The translations under genes were made by a program, and so were the position numbers. The notes under the pieces are model-generated. The model was not told where the DNA came from and did no database searches. It saw only the letters and a program-made list of their open reading frames with translations. This document shows positions 47,552 to 64,000 of a stretch of DNA of 64,000 nucleotides, piece by piece; the first letter of the stretch is position 1, and each line of letters opens with the position of its first letter. The DNA comes from Bacilli bacterium (GTDB lineage: Bacteria > Bacillota_I > Bacilli_A > RFN20 > CAG-826): contig JAKSVB010000007.1 in assembly GCA_024408335.1 (NCBI GenBank), forward strand, positions 18,408-82,407. The letters run 5' to 3'.

Positions 47552-48424
47552 TTAGGCAACTGGGTGATCGCCATCGTTCATATAGATGAGGGCGAGGCAG
47601 TTTTTGCCAGTATGGCAGCCGATTGTAGCGCCGGCATAGGTGATGTAGACATTCTTGAAACCGTAGTCCAAAAGCTTCTTTTTCGCTTCTTCCAAAATGT
47701 ACTGGTTTTCTTCGTCATAGATGGTGTGAGTTAAGAAGCACATCTCTTTGTCTGGGTTATGGAAGAGTCTAAGAGTCTCATCAATGTAGTCATTCATCCA
47801 CTTCTTAAGTGGACCACGGAATTTCTTGCCGCTTACGAGTTTGCCTGTATCGGTTTTAAGGAGGACTTGTGGGTGAAGTTTAAGGAGGTTAGCGCCAAGA
47901 AGAGCGATGATCGAGCATCTTCCACCGCGGTAAAGGAAATCAATGTTTTCTAGAGCAAGAGAAGTGTTGGTGTGCCATTTTCTTTCTTCGATTTCTTTGA
48001 CGATTTCAGTAGCGCTTCTTCCAGCATCAGCAAGTCTAGAAGCATAGATGAGTTGGGCGCCCATACCAGTAGCAAGCGCTCTAGAATCGATAACGTGGAC
48101 TTTGCCATCAAGTTCGTTAGCGGCATTGCAGGCGTTTTGGTAGGTACTTGAGATCTCTAAGCAAGGACAGATGTGAATGACTTCATCATAGTCTTTGAGG
48201 AGCTTTTCGAAATGCTCTTTGTATTCAAGGCTATTGACTGCTGCAGTACGGACAGGTTTCTTTGTTTGCATTGCGTATTCGATAAGCTGTCTAGCTGTTA
48301 TATCGCCATCTTTGCCTTCGGTTTCTCCAAGGACGACGTTAAAAGGGATAGCGTGGATTTTGAATTCTTTTAAAAGTTCTTCGCCCAAGTCACAGATTGA
48401 CTCGGTGGAAATTGCGATTTTCAT
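47552..48424 (-). CDS. DegV-family fatty-acid-binding protein (FakB-like), copy 1
   Basis: 290 aa: MKIAISTES..., the SSTYQNA motif region and YRGGRCS. Confidence 0.9.
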   Translation of the reverse strand: MKIAISTESICDLGEELLKEFKIHAIPFNVVLGETEGKDGDITARQLIEYAMQTKKPVRTAAVNSLEYKEHFEKLLKDYDEVIHICPCLEISSTYQNACNAANELDGKVHVIDSRALATGMGAQLIYASRLADAGRSATEIVKEIEERKWHTNTSLALENIDFLYRGGRCSIIALLGANLLKLHPQVLLKTDTGKLVSGKKFRGPLKKWMNDYIDETLRLFHNPDKEMCFLTHTIYDEENQYILEEAKKKLLDYGFKNVYITYAGATIGCHTGKNCLALIYMNDGDHPVA

Positions 48425-48481
48425 AATTTGTTTCTCCGATTTTGGGGGTTATACGACACGAGGTTAACTAGCTTTGTGGTA

Positions 48482-48524
48482 ATTATAAAAAACCGCTAAA
48501 AAAATATCTAGTATTAAAAACTAA
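48482..48524 (-). promoter_or_regulatory. TATAAT -10 plus 17-bp inverted repeat TTAGT-N7-ACTAG (48508..48524) over the -35 position
   Basis: The same box, the same flanking AAAATAT and the same 20-nt distance to the -10 recur at 49570..49612. Confidence 0.45.
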
Positions 48525-48609
48525 ATAAATTCGATTTTACAAATTTTTGATGCTCTTTCCGCAGGAACAGTCGATGTTTTTTAAATTCAATTTCAGAATT
48601 TTTATGATG

Positions 48610-48639
48610 AAAAAAATAAAAGCGGTATCACTACCGCTT
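48610..48639 (-). terminator. Rho-independent terminator after DegV copy 2
   Basis: AAGCGGUA-GUGA-UACCGCUU followed by UUAUUUUUUUC. Confidence 0.8.
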
Positions 48640-48657
48640 CAATTTTTGCACCTCTAT

Positions 48658-49530
48658 TTAAGCAATTGGATGATCGCCATCGTTCATATAAAGAACGCCG
48701 AGGGTGTTAGGGCCACAGTGGCAACTGATTGTTGCGCCAGCTAATGTGACATAGATGGTTTTGAATCCTTCTTGGATAAGTCTTTCTTTGATTGCGTCAA
48801 CGACTTTGAGATCTTCTTCGCCATAGATTGTGTGGGTGATGAAGACGACTTCTTTGTCTGGGTTATTAAATGTCTTAAGCGTTTCTTCGGTATAATCCAT
48901 TGCCCATTTCTTAACTGGACCACGGAATTTCTTACCGCTTTCCATCTTTCCTGTATCGGCCTTCATTAAGATTTGAGGGCGAAGTTTTAAGAGGTTTGCG
49001 CCGAATCTTGCCATCGCGCTACATCTGCCGCCTTTATAGAGGAACTCAACGGTTTCGAAACAGAAGGAAGTTTGGTTAGAAAGGATTCTATCTTCGACGA
49101 GCTTAACGATCTCTTCGCTGCTCTTGCCTGCCTTGATGAGCTTTGAAGTGTAGATGGTAAGAAGAGCGACGCCAGTTGAAAGGGAATGGCTATCGATTAC
49201 TTTGACTTTTCCTCCGAATTCTTGGCTTGCGATTACTGCGTTTTGGCAAGCACTGCTGATACCGCTAGAAAGAGCGATGTGGACGACTTCGTCGTGATCT
49301 TTAAGAAGCTTAGCAAAATATTCGCTATATTCAGAAACGTTGACGGCACTTGTTCTTCCAAGTTTGCCGCTTTTGATTGTGTAGTCGATAAGGTCTTTTC
49401 CAGTGATGACGCCATCGAAATCGCTTCTTTCGCCAATGGTGACGGTGAATGGGATGATATTAACGCCATATTCAGCAATTAGTTCTTTGGTAAGATCGCA
49501 TGCTGATTCGGTAGATAATGCAATTTTCAT
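48658..49530 (-). CDS. DegV-family fatty-acid-binding protein, copy 2
   Basis: 290 aa, very similar to copy 3 (for example NQTSFCFETVEFLYKGGRCSAMARFGANLLKLRPQILMK). Confidence 0.9.
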   Translation of the reverse strand: MKIALSTESACDLTKELIAEYGVNIIPFTVTIGERSDFDGVITGKDLIDYTIKSGKLGRTSAVNVSEYSEYFAKLLKDHDEVVHIALSSGISSACQNAVIASQEFGGKVKVIDSHSLSTGVALLTIYTSKLIKAGKSSEEIVKLVEDRILSNQTSFCFETVEFLYKGGRCSAMARFGANLLKLRPQILMKADTGKMESGKKFRGPVKKWAMDYTEETLKTFNNPDKEVVFITHTIYGEEDLKVVDAIKERLIQEGFKTIYVTLAGATISCHCGPNTLGVLYMNDGDHPIA

Positions 49531-49569
49531 AAAAATCTCTCCTAAAGTTATTTATCTTTCGGCTAAAAC

Positions 49570-49612
49570 ATTATAGCTATTGAAAACCAAAATATCTAGT
49601 TACCGAAACTAA
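49570..49612 (-). promoter_or_regulatory. TATAAT -10 plus inverted repeat TTAGT-N7-ACTAG (49596..49612)
   Basis: See 48482..48524; identical architecture. Confidence 0.45.
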
Positions 49613-49628
49613 GTTGTTTTTCGAGTAT

Positions 49629-49654
49629 GAAAAAAGGTAGTGTCTCCACTACCT
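49629..49654 (-). terminator. Rho-independent terminator after DegV copy 3
   Basis: AGGUAGUG-GAGA-CACUACCU followed by UUUUUC. Confidence 0.8.
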
Positions 49655-49660
49655 AGATTT

Positions 49661-50533
49661 TTATTCGATTGGGTGCTCGCCATCGTTCATATAGAAGACG
49701 CCGATGGTGTTAGGACCGCAGTGACAGCTGATTGTCGCGCCTGCATAGTTAACGTAGACGTTACGGAAACCTGCTTGTTTGACTCTTTCGATGACGGCTT
49801 CGACGGCTTTGTAATCCTCTTCGTTATAAACGGTGCTAGCAATGAAAGCGACTTCGTAGTCTGGATTATTAAACTCTTTAAGAGTTTCTTCGGTGTATTC
49901 AAGTGACCACTTCTTGATTGGGCCACGGAATTTCTTTCCGCTTTCCATCTTGCCGGTGTCGGTTTTCATTAAGATCTGTGGACGAAGCTTTAATAAGTTA
50001 GCGCCAAATCTTGCCATTGCGCTACATCTGCCGCCTTTGTAGAGGAACTCAACGGTTTCGAAGCAGAAGGAAGTTTGGTCGTATGGGACTCTTGCTTCAA
50101 CAAGCTTAACAACTTCATCGCTGCTCTTGCCTGCTTCAACAAGCTTTGCTGCGTAAAGGGCAAGAAGAGAGACGCCGCATGATAATGAGTGGCTGTCGAT
50201 GACTTTGACTCTGCCATTGAAATCTTGGCTAGCGACGACAGCGTTTTGGTAGGCACTACTGATGCCACTAGAAAGGCAGACTTGAATGACTTCATCGTAT
50301 TCTTTGAGAATCTTGGTGAAGTGCTCGGTGTATTCGCCAACGTTGACGGCGCTGGTTCTTCCAAGTTTTCCTGATTCGATTGTGTAGTCGATAAGGTCTT
50401 TTCCAGTGATAACTCCATCATAGTCGCTTCTCTCACCGAGAGTGACAGTGAATGGGATGATGAATATATGATAGCGTTCCGCAAGCTCTTTGGTGATGTC
50501 TGCGGCCGTTTCGACTGAAATAGCAATTTTCAT
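49661..50533 (-). CDS. DegV-family fatty-acid-binding protein, copy 3
   Basis: 290 aa DegV pattern. Confidence 0.9.
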   Translation of the reverse strand: MKIAISVETAADITKELAERYHIFIIPFTVTLGERSDYDGVITGKDLIDYTIESGKLGRTSAVNVGEYTEHFTKILKEYDEVIQVCLSSGISSAYQNAVVASQDFNGRVKVIDSHSLSCGVSLLALYAAKLVEAGKSSDEVVKLVEARVPYDQTSFCFETVEFLYKGGRCSAMARFGANLLKLRPQILMKTDTGKMESGKKFRGPIKKWSLEYTEETLKEFNNPDYEVAFIASTVYNEEDYKAVEAVIERVKQAGFRNVYVNYAGATISCHCGPNTIGVFYMNDGEHPIE

Positions 50534-53600: not shown

Positions 53601-53699
53601 ACCTAAGATTGGAAGGGCAATCGCAACTGCTAAACACACCCCTGATATTGGTAGCGTGATAGCACGGAATTTGCCGTTCTTCATATGTTTTTTGGCCAT
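50640..53699 (-). CDS. Glycoside hydrolase family 3 (beta-glucosidase/xylosidase-like), domain-permuted, with N- and C-terminal TM anchors
   Basis: After an N-terminal TM segment come the GH3 C-terminal sandwich domain (...FGYGLSYTSF) and an Fn3-like module (VKVTNTGTKAGKEVVQMYY). The GH3 catalytic (N-type) barrel follows (WGFQGEVITDFG), and the protein ends with a TM helix. Confidence 0.85.
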   Translation of the reverse strand: MAKKHMKNGKFRAITLPISGVCLAVAIALPILGDMFSTSIDTTMGLGALHVQEVKGSENWDTKYIDKKYQSKEESRNAANKISKQITDEGCVLLKNEGTLPLAKGSELVVFGDGFRAPAYGGKGSGGIDTSKEYVYTPEKALKKHFTLNNAIATITKTNAKIVDVQEAAGTSAAIQGAGGMFENDFGLKGVPVAEYDGVKTQISGKTAIIFIARGGGESFDIKRDGYADGTRHNLTLSANEKATIRYLKDNGASKIVAILDASNVFEAGELQSGEYAADAILSVGGPGAAGFESMADILAGDVNPSGRTVDIYAKDLLKTPALTNFGAFEYTNAEFEWQGSQHKGTFVHYEEGIYVGYKYYETAAAMGKITYENEVVYPFGYGLSYTSFSQEFLSFEVVGSLAKATVKVTNTGTKAGKEVVQMYYAAPYTAGDKAEKVEKATKNLVEFAKTKVLAPGADETITLEWNIEDMASYNYMRSNGDGTKGCYQLASGDYTIYLGKDSHSEWAHKSWSNPSTINYDNSNPRQSEKDGQSILDKEGHPTGVPEKSAIDSRASFVAATNQFQELSDFMNESGMTLLTRDAMDALPTAPTGSDFTLAAKYLANWNKTARGKYDYATNPETGNVVGSLVYSEKMPEHKDNGLTLSVLRGKGYYDRLWDDLLDQIDFSDSKVQEQLRDLLYYGAYNSGNLDCVGKPKVNDFDGPQGISSFMAQGLDACAYCSEVTVASTWNVELAHKYGEAIGQEGLTNDVVGWYGPAMNTHRTPFSGRNFEYYSEDGLLAGKMAAAAVSGAADQGFYAFMKHFALNDQETNRMDGLCTWATEQAVREIYLKPFEIVAKEARGKVYFTSDDQGTKDYKVMRGSTAVMSSFNNIGTTMASGHAGLLTKVLRDEWGFQGEVITDFGPYVDHDLMIRAGNDYLLNANWGGAKETFQAVFKDTTSATARQTIRRSVKNMCYTAVNSAAFNGVAPGAKTYRDIAPWRILLTSVTALFGVAGIGLVAWNVYRTLDAKKHPENYAD

Positions 53700-53721
53700 G
53701 ATATTGCCTCCTTATAACCAT

Positions 53722-53750
53722 ATATTAAGCAAGAAAAATCATTCTTTCAA
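53722..53750 (-). promoter_or_regulatory. Candidate GH3 promoter TTGAAA-17-TAATAT
   Basis: Read on the minus strand. The GGAGG RBS follows. Confidence 0.5.
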
Positions 53751-53768
53751 AAGAAATTCACAAAGCAA

Positions 53769-53800
53769 CTTTTGTCCATTGTCATTAATCTTTTGTCCAT
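53769..53800 (-). repeat. Two direct 11-nt repeats ATGGACAAAAG spaced 21 bp, upstream of the GH3 promoter (third, inverted copy at 53917..53926)
   Basis: Exact copies read at 53769..53779 and 53790..53800. Confidence 0.8.
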
Positions 53801-54022
53801 AATTTTTCATTTTATTGTCACCAGATTTCCATCAATTTTTTAGTTCGCTGTGTCGCAATTATTCACAAAAAAACACACTCCGTCTACTATTTGGATAAAT
53901 CGCTTTTTATTTTAATTGGACAAAAGTTTCTTTTTGTTTCTTTCAAAAGAGTTCTCAGTGCAATTTTTGACCTCGAACCAGGCCAATTTTTTCTTAGCGC
54001 TTCTTTACGAAAGGGCTTTCAT

Positions 54023-54358
54023 TTATTCGCCTAAAAGACGTTTTTTCGCTTCAATGTTAGACGAGATTATCATCTTGATCTTCTCGCACTTCTCTAAACT
54101 CTCGCAGCCTTTGCAGCTTTCTTTGGATTTAGAGATGACGCATTGACGGATTGGGCAAAGAGAATCACAAAACGGTGTCTTTCTGCCATTAGCCAAACAG
54201 CCATCGCAGTTAATCATTTCTTTGGTTATCGTGACTTGGTTTAGCTCGCTCCACTCCTTAGCAACCTTCTCTCTTAAAGAGTCGTCATCGCTTTGAGTGG
54301 CCTTATATGCCTCACATGACTTGCAGTCTAAGCCACAGCATGAATTAAGTTTTTCCAT
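54023..54358 (-). CDS. DUF3795-like cysteine-rich protein
   Basis: MEKLNSCCGLDCKSCEAYK... plus further CxxC pairs. Starts 1 nt after the deaminase stop. Confidence 0.7.
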   Translation of the reverse strand: MEKLNSCCGLDCKSCEAYKATQSDDDSLREKVAKEWSELNQVTITKEMINCDGCLANGRKTPFCDSLCPIRQCVISKSKESCKGCESLEKCEKIKMIISSNIEAKKRLLGE

Positions 54359-54359
54359 C

Positions 54360-55619
54360 TTATAAGACCTTCTTTCCTTTTACGAATTTGTTTACGATGA
54401 ATGAGTCTTGGCCGCTATAGATCAGCCTTTCGACTCTGTCTCTAATTGAAAACTTGATATGCGATGGATCGTTTTTCAAATCATCAACAACGACTATATC
54501 TGCGTCATAACCTTCAGCGAAGGTTCCAACTTTACCAAAGTAGGATCCTCCTCCAAGGGTACCTAGATAAAAGGCTTCTTCGGCAGTTAGCGGTGAATAA
54601 TCGGTGTCTTGGCCATAGTTAATGAGTTTTGAAAGCTGGATAGCTAGTTTCATAGCCTCTAGAAGATTCAAAGTCGAACCCCCTGCCACATCGCTTCCTA
54701 AACCGATATGCATATCTCTATCAAGGTATTTTCTGACTGGACAGATGCCACCTGTTGATACGTTGGTGTTGCTATCTGGGCAGTGCACTAAATAAACGTT
54801 CTTGTCTTTGAGGATTTGAAGTTCGTCTTCCCTAACGAAGATGCAGTGCGCCATAACGCTTCCTTCAAGAAGTCCTACTTTGTCATACGTATCTGTGTAA
54901 TGTTTTGCGTCAGGGCAAAGAGACTTAACGAAAGCAATCTCGTCACGGTTTTCATCTAAATGGGACTGGGAAGCCACACCATATTCTTTTCTAACTTCTC
55001 CTAACATCGAAAGCATTTCGTCGGTGCAGCTAACCGTGAATCTAGGAGTGATGATTGGCTTAACGTGCTTATAGTCTTTTAAGCGGTTAATGAATTCGAT
55101 GTTGTCATTCTTGGCTTCTTCAACTGAATGGCGATAGAAATCAGGAACGTTCCTATCCATATCGACAAGGCCAACATAGGCTTCGATTCCTGCTTTCTCA
55201 AGCATCGAGGCAAGGATTGTTGTGGCTTCTAGATGAAGAGTCGCAAAAATCACAGCGCGAGTTGTGAATGTCTTTCTTAATGATTCAACGAAGATCTTAT
55301 AGGCCTTCTTAGCGTATTTCTCGTCTTTGAATTTCGCTTCGATTGGGAAGGTGTATTTATCTAACCACTCCAAAAGAGTGACATCCATCGCAGTGCCTTT
55401 ATAGCCAAACTGCGAAGCGTGAAGATGGAGATCGCTCATTCCTGGGATGATGAGCTTTCCTGAATAATCTAGAAGCTTCTTCTTTTTTAGAGCCTCAGGA
55501 AGTCTTTTGTAAGTTCCTTCAATGATTCCGTTCTTTACGTGGATATATCCGTTTTTGATTGTTTCGAGAGTGTTTTTATTTTTCGAGAAGGCCAAATCGC
55601 CTTTGAGAATGTATTCCAT
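54360..55619 (-). CDS. guaD: Guanine deaminase (amidohydrolase superfamily)
   Basis: LIIPGMSDLHLHASQ..., LLEWLDKYTFP, SHLDENRDEIAFVKSL, HCPDSN, GLGSDVAGG. These are collinear with E. coli GuaD motifs. Confidence 0.8.
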   Translation of the reverse strand: MEYILKGDLAFSKNKNTLETIKNGYIHVKNGIIEGTYKRLPEALKKKKLLDYSGKLIIPGMSDLHLHASQFGYKGTAMDVTLLEWLDKYTFPIEAKFKDEKYAKKAYKIFVESLRKTFTTRAVIFATLHLEATTILASMLEKAGIEAYVGLVDMDRNVPDFYRHSVEEAKNDNIEFINRLKDYKHVKPIITPRFTVSCTDEMLSMLGEVRKEYGVASQSHLDENRDEIAFVKSLCPDAKHYTDTYDKVGLLEGSVMAHCIFVREDELQILKDKNVYLVHCPDSNTNVSTGGICPVRKYLDRDMHIGLGSDVAGGSTLNLLEAMKLAIQLSKLINYGQDTDYSPLTAEEAFYLGTLGGGSYFGKVGTFAEGYDADIVVVDDLKNDPSHIKFSIRDRVERLIYSGQDSFIVNKFVKGKKVL

Positions 55620-59119: not shown

Positions 59120-61153
59120 CTATTTTCTTGTAACCGTATATCTATTTGTCTCGCTTGAGTAAACGTATATGGCAGAGTAGCTATATTTCGTCGTCACATC
59201 TACCGTGTTAACGGTGTTACTTACCACGTAAGTTCCGATTGAGTAAGAACCGCTTAACGTGTATGAGGTAACGCCTGTCCCTAATGTTGGGTTGTTTTCA
59301 GGTCTCCCAAAGACGATAAGGGTTCCAGAACTAACCCTAGCCGTTCCATCAGTATCGAGTCCTGTTGACATTCCACCGTTTCCGCCTTTTGTTATGACTA
59401 ACCCTCCGGTTTGGGTGTAGGTGTTATTGCTATCAATGCCATCGACATCTCCGCCATAAACGGTGATATCGATCGTCCCTCCAGAGATATTGATTTCAGG
59501 ACTTACGCCTGCTTTATTTGCAGCGTTAAGCCCATCATCGGTGGAATACACTTTTACGGTGCCTCCAGAGATATTGATGATATTCCCTTCAATGCCTTCA
59601 TACGAATTCGTGACGTTAATGACTCCGCCAGAGATGTCATTAATGTTATCGGCGTGGATGCCATCATCCGAAGCGTAAAGAGATAAGTCACCTCCAGAAA
59701 TATGGACGTTTCCTAGTCCAGTTGATCCGTTTTCGAGTTCTGCTCCTCTTCCAGCATGGACCGCATCATCATAGGCCTTAACGGAGATTTCGCCTCCTCT
59801 AATGAATATCTCGTTATCGGATTTGATTCCTTTCGCGGAATAATCCGCTTTATCGTTATTGCCTTCTTGCATTCCTCCTCCTGGACCTCCAGGGAAACCT
59901 CCGCCTCCTTGTTGAGTAGTGAAGTTTGTCCATTGAGAACACGACACATTAGAAGATGAGACAGATAAGACTGCAGTATCGTAGTTAGGATTAATGGTTA
60001 TGAATGAAGATGACGCTAAAGCGGTGCTTTCGTTTCTGGTCGTTACCGATTTTTGATATAAGAACACCTTCATCGATGTTGCGTCGCTAGGTTTAGAAAG
60101 CTCGTAGAAATAGTAATAAGAACCCCTGCCACCTTGTTTCATCGTTGAATAGGCCGCGTCTCTCCAAGTCAAAACATTGCTACTATTTTTGAACTGAACA
60201 GAATAGTTATAGGTATTGTTACTCGTTCTAAGGTACATCTTTGTGGCGCTTTGATCGTTGCCACTTCCGGAGATGCTTCCTATGGTGTAAGGAGAATATG
60301 AACTTGTTTTGATATCTAATTTAGGTTCGTTTTCAATGACTACGTCATAGGCCGCTTCGATGGCATCCTCACATGAACTAATTGTGATATCGCCACCTGT
60401 GATGTTAATGCTTCCTTTTTGATTTCCTTTTGAGGATATGGAAGTGTTCTCTGTCTTTAAGCCTGAGCCACACTTAGAGATTAGGTTTATGGTTCCTGAC
60501 TCGACAGTAATGGAATCATTTCCTTTTACCGCGTGGTTGATGGATGTCACATTAATCGTGCCAGTTGATTTGAATTTGATGTCATCAGTTGAATGAATGC
60601 CGTTATTGTAAGAAGCGTTAACAGTAAGACTGCCAGTGCTGGTGATTTTCAAATCGCATTTCGAATAGATGGCTCCTTTACCTTGTAATGGATCTTCGTT
60701 ACTTGAATCTAAGGCCATGCGATTGTCGTTAATGACGTTATTGCCAATGAGCTTAATCTTTAATTCGCCAGCGCTTTTGCAGTATATAGGTGAATTGTCT
60801 GTTGATGTTATGGTCGCGCCATTTAAAACGACTTCCACTTCATCCGTTTCTGGGGCGTCGATTAAAATCGAGCCATTAACGTTACCTGAAAATGTATATG
60901 ATCCTGCTGCGTTAATTGTCCTAATGAAATTTTCAGGATTCATCGAAGAAGGCAAGGTGGATGATGAAACCTCGTTAGACGAAGAATCGTAGCTCGTAGA
61001 AGAGGTTTGACTACTTTCTAAAGATGATAAAAGTGACGATGACGCCTTATCTTCTTCGCTATAAAAAGAGGAAGAAACCTTTGAGTCTTCGATTCCGCCA
61101 CAACTGCAAAGCAGTGAGATGGATAGTAACATAACGAGTCTTTTCTTATTCAT
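59120..61153 (-). CDS. Lipoprotein with Cthe_2159-like beta-helix carbohydrate-binding repeats
   Basis: Lipobox LLCSCG, a Ser-rich linker, then repeated D-[AD]-[IGV]-[EHN]-[AS] turns (DAIEA, DDAVHA, DDGIHAD, DDGLNA, DGIDSN). Confidence 0.6.
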   Translation of the reverse strand: MNKKRLVMLLSISLLCSCGGIEDSKVSSSFYSEEDKASSSLLSSLESSQTSSTSYDSSSNEVSSSTLPSSMNPENFIRTINAAGSYTFSGNVNGSILIDAPETDEVEVVLNGATITSTDNSPIYCKSAGELKIKLIGNNVINDNRMALDSSNEDPLQGKGAIYSKCDLKITSTGSLTVNASYNNGIHSTDDIKFKSTGTINVTSINHAVKGNDSITVESGTINLISKCGSGLKTENTSISSKGNQKGSINITGGDITISSCEDAIEAAYDVVIENEPKLDIKTSSYSPYTIGSISGSGNDQSATKMYLRTSNNTYNYSVQFKNSSNVLTWRDAAYSTMKQGGRGSYYYFYELSKPSDATSMKVFLYQKSVTTRNESTALASSSFITINPNYDTAVLSVSSSNVSCSQWTNFTTQQGGGGFPGGPGGGMQEGNNDKADYSAKGIKSDNEIFIRGGEISVKAYDDAVHAGRGAELENGSTGLGNVHISGGDLSLYASDDGIHADNINDISGGVINVTNSYEGIEGNIINISGGTVKVYSTDDGLNAANKAGVSPEINISGGTIDITVYGGDVDGIDSNNTYTQTGGLVITKGGNGGMSTGLDTDGTARVSSGTLIVFGRPENNPTLGTGVTSYTLSGSYSIGTYVVSNTVNTVDVTTKYSYSAIYVYSSETNRYTVTRK

Positions 61154-61422
61154 GTTTTTTCCTCCTTGAATTTTCCTTAAGATATAAAATTTTTTTATCC
61201 CTCATAAGCGTTATTTTTGAGTTTTAACGCTTCTTTAATTAATTTTTTGGAATTTATAAAGGTGTCAATAATTGATATTCAAACAGTTTAGTCCACTTGT
61301 CACTATTTATTTTTCGTGGGTTTCAAAAATGGATGAGATAAAATAAGCCCACGAAAGAAAATAGAACCGCAAAACTCTATCTTCCAGGACTCTTTGAGTT
61401 CTATGAACTCTATAAGAGGTTC

Positions 61423-62253
61423 TTGGGATTATATAAGAACCACCGCGACTATTTTTATGACTTCATAGAAATCTCTTCGATTTACGGCGCCACCTCATCT
61501 TGCCTTTGGGGAGGAGGGAGAGTTGCTTTTGGAGATGATGATGTGTCTTCTTTCCTAGAACTCCTAAAAGATTCTGGGGTATCCGCTAGACTGACATTTA
61601 GTAATTCTCTTCTCCAAAAAGAACATCTAGATGATCCTTTATGCAATAAGTTATGTGCCTTATTAAATGATCCAAACGGTCATAACGGTGTCATCGTTCA
61701 TAGCGATTTGCTTAAAGATTATCTTTTAGAGAAGTATCCATATCTTGAACTCATATCATCTACCACAAAAGTATTGCTTGATGACGCTTCGTTAAAAGAG
61801 GAACTCGCCAAAAAGGAATTTAAATACGTCGTTCCTGATTTTAGATACAACAAGAGACTAGATTTCTTTTCTTCACTAAATGAAGAATCGAAAGATAAAG
61901 TTGAGCTTCTTATTAATGAATGCTGCTATATAGGCTGCAAAGAAAGAAAAGAATGCTATAAAAACGTATCGGAAAAGGCTCTTGGGTTGAATACCAGAGA
62001 CCATATATGCAAAGCCCCTTTCGGTAATGAAGGATACGTATTCTCTAGAGCCATGGAAAACCCTACTTTCGTTAGCGTTTCTGACATCAAAGAAACATAC
62101 CTTCCTTTAGGAATAAGCAACTTCAAAATCGAAGGAAGAGGTTTAGGAAGCGCCTTAGTATTTGAAATGCTCCTTTACTACTTAGTTAAGCCTGAATGTC
62201 AGCTTAAAGTACGAGAAGCAGTATATCTCGACGCCAACTTGGACTTGTTCTAA
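61423..62253 (+). CDS. U32-peptidase-like TIM-barrel protein; start uncertain (TTG, no in-frame ATG upstream)
   Basis: C-terminal GISNFKIEGRG resembles the U32 KIEGR region. The frame is open from 61342, but the only start-like codon with an AGAGG is the TTG at 61423. Confidence 0.4.
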   Translation: MGLYKNHRDYFYDFIEISSIYGATSSCLWGGGRVAFGDDDVSSFLELLKDSGVSARLTFSNSLLQKEHLDDPLCNKLCALLNDPNGHNGVIVHSDLLKDYLLEKYPYLELISSTTKVLLDDASLKEELAKKEFKYVVPDFRYNKRLDFFSSLNEESKDKVELLINECCYIGCKERKECYKNVSEKALGLNTRDHICKAPFGNEGYVFSRAMENPTFVSVSDIKETYLPLGISNFKIEGRGLGSALVFEMLLYYLVKPECQLKVREAVYLDANLDLF

Positions 62254-62261
62254 ACATAAAA

Positions 62262-62905
62262 GAGGCGCTCTACTCACATATTGGCTTTCTAATAGCCTCA
62301 TTATCTCCGGGTTTTTGAACCTTAACTAAAGACGTCACATCCCTTGGTAGCCAAGTATCGAAGATTGTCCTTATTTTGTTTCTTTCGAATCCAAAAAAGC
62401 GTATTTAGTACGGTGTTAAGCTTAGTCAGCGATTCTATTGGCTCCACCTCTCTTTTGCGGCCTACAAGAAAAGTGTTTAGGAACATTAATGATAGAATGT
62501 CTTTTTCATCATGGACTTTTCATTCTTTGGTTATATAGTGCTTCTCTTACCGTTTGAATTCCAATCTTTGCACACGAAACCCCAGGCCCGGCAGAGGATG
62601 GTTTAGCCCTTGAGACTTGGCCTCCCCCTCCCTTGTGTATTGTTTCATTCCCACTCATTGCTAGCTTTTCGGCGATTCGGTGAGAATAACTCGTATCGCA
62701 TCAATTTTTGTCGAAACGGGATATTAACCTCATTGCTTGGCTCAAGAAGAAATCCTTATTTTTTGAGCCGACGAATGAATCTACTATATCATCAGCTAGG
62801 CTACCGGTATAAGCAGTGCTCCCTGCATCAGCCTTTTCTATAAGGTTTCCGGCTGATGCAATCCGGCCTTCATCTCCTTCCATGGGGATAGCGCCCTTTT
62901 CATTA
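62262..62905 (-). ncRNA. Candidate large structured RNA (~640 nt; family unassigned) or decayed gene
   Basis: No credible ORF in any frame. Several hand-found helices, including nested ones, have G.U pairs valid only on the minus strand, and there are locally GC-rich tracts (see findings). Confidence 0.3.
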
Positions 62906-63015
62906 TTGCGATAAAGGCTTCTTAAAAGAAAAAAGGCCTGACACTACTGTATCAAACCTATTCTTGTTATATGGCTATGAACTAGTGATTTGATACCAAT
63001 TAAACACTTTTGAGT

Positions 63016-63048
63016 TTCATTGAACATTTTAACAGTTCATTGAACATC
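63016..63048. repeat. Two exact 12-nt direct repeats TTCATTGAACAT spaced 21 bp, each containing the 9-bp palindrome TTCATTGAA
   Basis: Read directly at 63016..63027 and 63037..63048. Confidence 0.85.
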
Positions 63049-63208
63049 ACCTATTTTAAGGTCTTTTTTAACTATTTTTTCCTATTTTTTGTCGAACCCA
63101 CGATGAGCCCACAACAGATTTAGGAGAACCTTTATATGATGGGGTCAAAGTGCTGATGCATTGTTTATAGTACTTAAATGCGAGCCCTACAGGACTATTA
63201 TCTACGTT

Positions 63209-63847
63209 TTAAGTATTATCATTATCAATTATAGTAACTTGCCGTTCCGAACTATCAATACGAAGGAAAGAATACAAATATTTAGAGTTGTGATCACTTT
63301 CTTGAAGAACAAAATATCCTTTCCCGACAAAAATTTTATCACCAACCTGTTCCCTTCTTAAATATTCGGCATCATTATCCAAATAAATATGGGTATAGCT
63401 TGAAACATTGTTATCAATGGTTTCCGAAATATTTTTGAGCCTAACAGAGATAAAACACAAAGCATCACTTTCAAAACTTGGTCTATCTTCAGTTAAATCT
63501 TCATGAGCGTCAAAAAAATTCATAAATACCTTGTTGCAAGATTCTAAATCTGATGACAGCACATTTTTGTTGAAGTCAAAGTCTTTGTCTACTTCAAAAT
63601 GATAATAGACACCATCAAAACCACCATCCGATCCTTTGTTTTTGTTGTAATGCTTTTTGATGAGGACTGTGTTATCTGGCAAATTAATATCCCAGTTTCT
63701 TAATCGTTCAATTGAGCCTTTTTCGGTTTCGGTTTCATATTCATCAATGTAATTTACGTCTCCATAATATTTGCAACTAGTAAACGCTAAGCACGTTATA
63801 GATAGAACAAAAATGGAGATTCTTTTAACAATCAAATCTGTTTTCAT
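63209..63847 (-). CDS. Lipoprotein, unknown function, in a lower-GC segment
   Basis: MKTDLIVKRISIFVLSITCLAFTSC lipobox, using the internal ATG at 63847. Confidence 0.6.
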   Translation of the reverse strand: MKTDLIVKRISIFVLSITCLAFTSCKYYGDVNYIDEYETETEKGSIERLRNWDINLPDNTVLIKKHYNKNKGSDGGFDGVYYHFEVDKDFDFNKNVLSSDLESCNKVFMNFFDAHEDLTEDRPSFESDALCFISVRLKNISETIDNNVSSYTHIYLDNDAEYLRREQVGDKIFVGKGYFVLQESDHNSKYLYSFLRIDSSERQVTIIDNDNT

Positions 63848-64000
63848 AATCAAGCGCTCTTTGTATTCCAATACATATGGATTGATTTATTCACGTTCAG
63901 TTCATTGGCATAAGTTATATATCTCATGCTTCCAGAGACATAACTTAATGTGATGTGCGTTGCAAATATTCTTCCTTTTGTAAGATTACTCTTATATTTT

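Follow-up and report, generated by a model that had tools for sequence, protein, structure and literature searches.

Between the stop codon of a plus-strand gene that ends at 62253 and that of a minus-strand gene that ends at 63209, the window (the whole 64,000-nt stretch of DNA that was analysed) has a segment, 62254..63208, in which no ORF exceeds 77 aa. The initial annotation had described this gap as gene-free, as is borne out here, and had proposed that 62262..62905 specifies a structured RNA of about 640 nt on the minus strand. We asked what the gap contains. Our results indicate, with a probability of roughly 0.85, that 62545..62918 on the minus strand is a dead, decayed fragment (374 nt) of an insertion sequence of the IS21 family. 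The element is of an ordinary kind and is not an RNA of a known family; only its terminal module, which is shared with phages, deserves follow-up, the rest of the finding being ordinary.

Extent and flanks of the gap

The GC content is 0.40-0.46 across 62300..62900, compared with 0.30-0.35 across 62900..63200, in agreement with the locally raised GC that had been reported for the candidate region. Conceptual translations of the gap gave zero matches to Pfam and NCBIfam. A nearly open minus-strand frame of 132 aa had zero relatives in a word-indexed search of 5.8 billion proteins, because it is the wrong frame. Also, no part of the gap sequence proved to be a repeat copy from elsewhere in the window.

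The left flank is a U32/PrtC-like gene (276/300 aa) with thousands of homologs. A 94%-identical contig (L074) matches the window from 61202 to 62261 and diverges exactly at 62261, and a 97.7%-identical contig (L063) matches from 63883 to 62972 and diverges beyond 62972. Synteny with the closest relatives is broken at these two positions, on both sides of the segment, and since both homologies stop there, 62262..62971 is private to this genome. By these sequence comparisons, the private segment appears to lie where two blocks, each mobile or variable, adjoin. In the 78%-identical genomes (L075-L080), other genes come after the U32-like gene, and the gap shows no trace of remnants of them (a 176-aa gene, DUF362, a GDSL lipase and a pseudouridine synthase). 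None of 61 loci of distant U32-like gene homologs is similar to the gap, and the neighbouring peptidase S41 gene, used as a synteny anchor, had no relatives among GTDB representatives.

To the right of the gap lies a gene for a lipoprotein of 220 aa (63209-63871). This right-hand block is found elsewhere in at least 4 differing contexts, and copies of the lipoprotein gene that are 92-97% identical occur in other metagenomes, where the neighbours include a sigma-70 operon, a 413-aa gene with an AAA_14/DUF4143 ATPase gene, and a serine recombinase gene. Because the lipoprotein gene stands beside quite different genes, the right side of the gap, from 63209 to beyond 64000, is a mobile or hyper-variable block. 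The intrinsic terminator of the lipoprotein gene marks the junction where the remnant of the insertion sequence (IS) is cut off. The terminator scan did not detect the terminator-like hairpin that had been proposed at 62261..62271. The limits of the original candidate, 62262..62905, match real breakpoints: homology of the left flank stops at 62261, and IS homology starts at about 62906-62918. The features to which we refer below are as follows.

62924..62959, minus strand: intrinsic terminator of the 220-aa lipoprotein gene, with an 11-bp stem (62959..62934) and a T-run (terminator scan)
62545..62918, minus strand: decayed, 5'-truncated IS21-family right end, the whole remnant (blastn, and istAB upstream in homologs)
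62796..62918, minus strand: istB pseudogene fragment, last 40 codons and stop, with an in-frame TAG at 62840..62838
62729..62779, minus strand: hairpin A, a long and imperfect inverted repeat directly beyond the stop codon of istB; its apical stem is the 7-bp helix 62739-45/62763-69
62713..62720, minus strand: an inverted copy of the terminus inside the IS end, which in the window reads CCCGTTTC (minimum free energy [MFE] folds)
62647..62687, minus strand: hairpin B (AUUCUCAC...GUGGGAAU), whose outer stem is the 8-bp helix of the initial annotation
62549..62633, minus strand: terminal module of ~85-88 nt, common to phages (blastn; nhmmer, 62633..62550)
62262..62544, no strand assigned: unassigned DNA of 283 nt with no homolog, from the IS terminus to the end of the convergent U32-like gene

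A decayed right end of an IS21-family element

Window positions 62906..62545 were 74-75% identical in blastn searches to three loci (L186, L176 and L188) over 370-376 nt (E 2e-63), and weaker DNA matches were observed to L202, L191/L193 and L185. Immediately upstream of the homologous end, each of the first three loci carries genes for IstA (PF00665, rve) and IstB (PF01695). In L176, a 496-aa protein matched PF00665, the DDE core of IstA, at E 2e-11, and the 220-aa protein encoded directly downstream of istA matched PF01695 (IstB_IS21) at E 1e-24; the homologous loci have IstA lengths of 490-496 aa and an IstB length of 220 aa. Twelve further copies were found in GTDB metagenome-assembled genomes (MAGs) labelled Mollicutes, Bacilli, Anaeroplasmataceae or Acholeplasmatales. 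Like IS21, IS5376, IS232 and IS100, the relatives of the remnant have istA (HTH and rve DDE domains, ~490 aa) followed by istB (AAA+, ~220 aa). The order in intact copies is istA, which encodes the DDE transposase, istB, about 330 nt of non-coding end, and a sharp stop at ...GGAGTTCAAACGG(TGA).

All that the window preserves of this arrangement is a dead fragment of 374 nt, made up of the last 40 istB codons and about 250 nt of the non-coding element end. In tblastn, residues 181-220 of the L176 IstB protein matched window positions 62918..62799 with 58% identity (E 4e-9) across an internal stop, and the natural istB stop is retained beyond the premature in-frame TAG. The 64-kb window has no istA sequence and no further istB sequence; from the window copy, the left end, istA and the greater part of istB are gone. 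That the region might be simply the remnant of a known protein gene, an alternative named at the outset, is borne out for 62796..62918, the istB pseudogene fragment. The initial annotation had, in addition, assigned the candidate to the minus strand, which is the correct strand of the conserved feature, and had looked to homologous non-coding regions for support; homologous, largely non-coding and hairpin-rich sequence does exist elsewhere, as the right ends of IS21-family elements.

In intact copies, cutting and transposition of the element would be carried out jointly by IstA and IstB, by the established IS21 mechanism (PMC10122671), and the inverted and direct repeats of the right end would be protein-recognition and insulating DNA of the terminus. 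Since the window copy has diverged to 74% identity and no longer gives the folding signal described below, we infer that it has drifted and cannot act alone. The gap represents a scar left behind by a transposon, and its annotation should read IS21-family remnant.

Element termini and mobility

In ~20 independent copies, conservation ends at TTCAAAC(G)(G), that is, at ...GGAGTTCAAAC(G)(G), after which the sequences differ. The sequences beyond this right terminus include 5'-truncated serine recombinase genes and RNase III, AAA_14 ATPase and GNAT genes; unrelated and often truncated host genes abut the intact right ends. One sharp terminus followed by unrelated flanks in ~20 copies is, therefore, recognizable as a transposon terminus. 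In their sharp terminus, in insertions that disrupt host genes, and in the repeated right-end blocks GGAGTCAAATC and GGAGTTCAAAC, which form a direct repeat, the relatives of the window copy resemble the IS21 family.

In other respects these relatives differ from it. The ends of IS21 carry terminal inverted repeats, arranged as pairs of direct repeats (L1/L2 and R1/R2), that end in CA (PMC10122671). The left end of the present element lies about 100 nt upstream of istA (TTTAAGGAGGTGRTG), a boundary that is approximate, and its comparison with the right end gave no clear match for an IS21 terminal inverted repeat and no identifiable terminal CA. With the left boundary approximate, the flanks of L203-L210 contain no convincing target-site duplication of 4-8 bp. 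The full element is not delimited here, because neither a terminal inverted repeat nor a target-site duplication is available to define it. Instead of standing at the left end, an inverted copy of the terminus sits ~175 nt inside the right end. L191 and L193 have common left flanks and different right flanks, and therefore the mobile unit may be larger, or may have been rearranged by adjacent deletions.

The hairpin-rich non-coding right end of the relatives is itself unusual. Described IS21-family ends are not known to reach the ~330 nt of conserved non-coding DNA that follows istB in this lineage, whose last 88 nt, moreover, are common to phages that infect the same hosts. The elements represent an uncatalogued IS21-family lineage of Mollicutes-like Bacilli with an unusually long, palindrome-rich right end.

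Several additional observations were made at these junctions. Five of ~15 right ends abut large serine recombinase genes (L176, L181, L191, L206 and L210), which differ in where they are truncated and are in every case oriented away from the IS; the abutment suggests either IS-mediated adjacent deletions or a preferred neighbourhood. Another 5'-truncated right-end remnant (L094 7244-7698, minus strand) directly follows a tRNA-Leu(UAA) gene with its terminator, and an AAA_14/DUF4143 ATPase gene lies 165 nt downstream of it. The same remnant recurs in L093, where it adjoins a version of this ATPase gene that is deleted at the 5' end. We considered a MITE reading of these two solo copies and rejected it; they are 5'-truncated IS ends in which homology runs into hairpin A.

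Hairpins of the right end

We used an alignment of 17 right ends (A5) to examine conservation of the hairpins. For hairpin A (columns 12-28 with 48-64), 89.6% of cells were paired, and 4 pairs showed two-sided changes; MFE folding predicted the hairpin for L176 as well as for the window sequence. Hairpin B, which begins ~100 nt beyond hairpin A, had 95% of cells paired in columns 124-130 with 156-162 and two-sided changes at 2 pairs, and was also predicted by RNAalifold. The third element that has been kept is a small G-rich hairpin within the phage-shared module. In L181, which has a different type of IstAB, a hairpin of unrelated sequence occupies the position of hairpin B. Finally, in MFE folds the terminal TTCAAACGG can pair with the internal inverted copy of the terminus about 165-175 nt upstream, which in intact copies reads ATC(C/T)CGTTTGAAT (ATCYCGTTTGAAT); 77% of cells were paired in this long-range helix, in which L203/L204 have G-C replaced by U-A, a double change. 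Overall, 89.5% of cells were paired in the conserved hairpins as opposed to at most 51% when the partner was slid. Two-sided changes were observed at 9 of 34 pairs, and the covariation score was 0.151 compared with 0.100 in shuffles (none of 500 reached the observed value), a score that comes from 17 related sequences only.

These observations could be accounted for if RNA were the functional form of the right-end region, which comprises the two hairpins (A and B), the long-range helix and the terminal module. Such an RNA might be a structured 3' UTR or a non-coding RNA encoded by the IS with a role in controlling or guiding transposition, and the window sequence would be a decayed copy of it. 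The compensatory changes in the hairpins, the differing hairpin at the same place in the distant L181, folding of intact copies at z -3.4 to -5.9, and the location of the region in the direction of istAB transcription all point that way. A foldable, conserved non-coding segment that ends exactly at an element boundary is also what is seen with the guide and regulatory RNAs of other insertion sequences (IS110 bridge RNA, IS1111 seekRNA and the omega RNA of TnpB/IscB). The present system differs from those, however: its transposase, a DDE enzyme, works with an AAA+ helper by a mechanism known to be free of RNA, and its fold signal is symmetric with respect to strand. Intact right ends had z-scores of -2.3 to -5.9, with a mean of -3.6 on one strand and an equally favourable mean of -3.8 on the antisense strand. 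In the IS part of the window copy this signal is lost (z -0.53 to -0.85 on the minus strand, -2.05 on the other). No stable fold specific to one strand was found, the window having z -0.80 and the intact copies being equally stable on both strands. Counts of G.U versus A.C mismatches, likewise, were symmetric in hairpin A (22 versus 21) and in the long-range helix (8 versus 7) and favoured the other strand in the inner part of hairpin B (7 versus 22), as DNA palindromes give. The minus-only G.U pairs from which the strand of an RNA had initially been argued do not hold up as an argument across the family. From the strand-symmetric folding and the mismatch counts, therefore, we conclude that the hairpins are conserved inverted repeats, probably DNA palindromes, and not strand-specific RNA. 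Inverted protein-binding sites would yield the same apparent covariation, and transposition of IS21 is understood without RNA (PMC10122671, PMC11208146). Some room for an RNA function, which we regard as unlikely, is still left by the covariation and by how strongly intact copies fold.

Two further RNA readings were tried and rejected. A 34-nt GAGCC...GUUC stretch, read as domain V of a group II intron, gave no pairing and no Rfam match, and GGGGGAUUCGAAUCUC, read as a tRNA-like T-arm, has a stem that does not pair in register.

A terminal module shared with phages

The last part of the IS21-family end consists of a G-run/AAGTCTC block, a variable spacer, a GCCTGGGGTTTCGTGTGCAAA block and the terminal TTCAAACGG, and includes the G-rich stretch GGGAGGGGGAGGCC that the initial annotation had singled out. 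A blastn search of GenBank phages gave one match, to window positions 62550..62591 (42 nt, 90.5% identity, E 3e-6), in Anaeroplasmataceae phage NatCom_34063 (PV036447.1), at a site between the genes for an HNH endonuclease and the small terminase (TerS). An exact 18-mer from this match retrieved 11 IMG/VR contigs, 10 of which have the order HNH-module-TerS, and in loci fetched by way of the small terminase protein the module was present at the HNH-TerS junction in 77 of 80. In the phages, the layout is GGGG..AAATCTCTAC, a spacer, and CGGCCTGGGGTTTCGTGTGCAAAAAT..TTCAAACGGGGTATTAACCCC, and the span common to the IS end and the phages extends from -49 to +38 around the core. The phage module is non-coding, ~100 nt long, and located ~100 nt upstream of the TerS start (L081 3975-4098; L082-L092; L095-L175); hosts of the contigs that bear it are Mollicutes, Ruminococcus, Oscillospiraceae, Streptococcus and Erysipelothrix.

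Searches of the module-bearing phage loci with Rfam identified no family, RNAalifold gave 0 consensus pairs in the phage module over 58 sequences, and the spacer of the phage module showed no hairpin tendency (mean z 0.03, n=50). With conserved blocks on either side of an unstructured, variable spacer, the module therefore looks like protein-recognition DNA. The HNH-TerS junction is presumably where the cos sites of phages with HNH-dependent packaging lie (HK97, with its HNH protein gp74, and staphylococcal phi12/phiSLT). By analogy with these, in position as well as in the arrangement of blocks and spacer, the phage module is probably a packaging (cos) recognition region; the related phage records are prophage- or metagenome-derived and without mapped ends, so that its designation as cos is by position.

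The module core is also found in the absence of HNH or TerS genes, in MAGs of Mollicutes and Firmicutes and in 9 of 27 gut-metagenome matches. The two types of IstAB, whose IstB proteins are only 39% identical, have ends that each resemble a different phage variant, and the likeness of L181 to the L099/L197 phage variants extends into the variable spacer. This matching of two IstAB types to different phage variants suggests either repeated exchange or a shared function. Possibly, though we would not expect it, the module is a functional copy of the packaging or late-region signal of helper phages, acquired more than once, that lets the transposon or adjacent DNA be seen by terminase and HNH (for hitchhiking, as a decoy or for recombination); the same low expectation covers the alternative that the whole 250-nt end is an IS21-associated non-coding RNA. 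Were the sharing of the module between IS and phages to have a function, it would represent a novel form of interaction between transposons and phages.

Satellites such as SaPIbov5 and the cos-PICIs provide a precedent for a non-phage mobile element that bears a copy of such a module, although the carrier here is a transposon end and not an integrase-bearing island. The precedent raises the question of whether the window itself holds the remnant of a prophage or phage satellite, with an orphan cos-type packaging site left in the chromosome. We consider this very improbable. The 85-nt module in common with the HNH-TerS junction of Anaeroplasmataceae/Mollicutes phages, and its situation at a variable, island-like junction, are what such a remnant would show; however, there is no flanking HNH, TerS or other phage gene remnant, homology continues upstream for another 290 nt, into hairpins specific to the IS and into istB, and the window is without the phage block that comes after CAAACGG (GGGGTAWTA..), the IS copy thus lacking the block that in the phages stands beside TerS.

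The candidate 640-nt RNA

We return now to the free-standing RNA gene on the minus strand, 62905..62262, that was first proposed for this locus. The six helices drawn by hand are all present on that strand exactly as they were written, and this holds for the G.U pairs and the perfect 10-bp helix as well. Relative to 100 dinucleotide shuffles, 62262..62905 contains 83 stems of at least 6 bp (79.7+-10.7 expected), 29 of at least 7 bp (29.6 expected) and 15 of at least 8 bp (9.6+-3.5 expected); stems of at least 10 bp are the sole enriched class, at 5 versus 1.2+-1.1 (p ~0.01). Three of the six helices (62739-45/62763-69, 62647-54/62680-87 and, roughly, 62593-98/62624-29) coincide with hairpins that have been kept, with compensatory changes, across the 17 homologs. 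Of the other three, two (62464-73/62541-50 and 62494-99/62521-26) fall within the homolog-less 62262..62544, and the third, the perfect 10-bp helix, is within what was once istB coding sequence.

The enriched long stems, the helices themselves and the raised GC are thus the points in favour of an ornate RNA. In its proposed size class, in having a Firmicutes/Mollicutes-like host and in being located in a variable region, the candidate is similar to ROOL, GOLLD, OLE, raiA and HEARO. The whole 644-nt region had an MFE z-score of only -0.80 on the minus strand, as compared with -2.31 on the plus strand. At gathering score, Rfam 15 identified three tRNAs in the full window, all of them outside the gap, and even at E<=10 there were zero matches in 62262..62905; ROOL, GOLLD, OLE, raiA, HEARO, group II introns, RNase P and tmRNA were included in this search. 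On the minus strand, the candidate comes immediately after the terminator at 62959..62934, and no promoter was found between the two. Conservation does not extend over the full length of the candidate and is confined to the IS21 end at 62545..62918, the upper 120 nt being istB pseudogene and the lower 283 nt having no homolog, and the homologs are always joined to istAB or are truncated IS ends. The reading as an ornate 640-nt RNA is, by these results, largely refuted, and we attach scarcely any probability to it.

Least probable of all is a small protein gene, the 60-aa ORF 62701..62883 (minus strand), which was predicted by a gene caller in L062, an identical Logan contig, and whose codon-usage score of 0.21 lies between those of wrong frames (-0.74) and real genes (0.41), since this ORF is another frame of the istB remnant that runs through hairpin A, is closed by TGA in the aligned L176 sequence, and has no homolog among 5.8 billion proteins and no match in Pfam or NCBIfam.

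The lower segment and other features of the window

Sequence 62262..62544, between the IS21-family remnant and the U32-like gene, showed no DNA or protein similarity to any fetched locus, to phages or to plasmids. A full HMMER search of 1.84 billion representative proteins with its 65-aa frame (62325..62519) gave one marginal match of 19 residues (E 9.5e-4). On these comparisons the segment would seem to be leftover, unassignable DNA.

A code-4 reading (TGA = Trp) of the open frame in the gap was considered because TGA is rare as a stop in the window (1/36), and was rejected; table 11 gives long, contiguous ORFs, and for the frame no homologs were found. The stop codons of the 36 long window ORFs are TAA in 30, TAG in 5 and TGA in 1, so that TGA is almost unused as a stop, yet the genome reads well under table 11.

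The U32/PrtC-like gene (61351-62253) encodes 300 aa in all close homologs, which places its start at ~61351, upstream of the TTG at 61423 in the ORF list; it has no Pfam match despite its thousands of homologs across many phyla. A gene for a serine-rich lipoprotein of the Cthe_2159 family (59120-61153) is situated between the TMEM164 and U32-like genes, and because these 2 genes are directly adjacent in L075-L080, the 59120-61153 gene looks inserted. A second long gene-free gap (53699-54360, 661 nt) was observed between genes for a GH3 glycosidase and an amidohydrolase, and it gave no Rfam match at gathering score. Elsewhere in the window, three tandem paralogs of the DegV family (290 aa each, 47552-50533) are located beside a rimP-nusA-infB operon.
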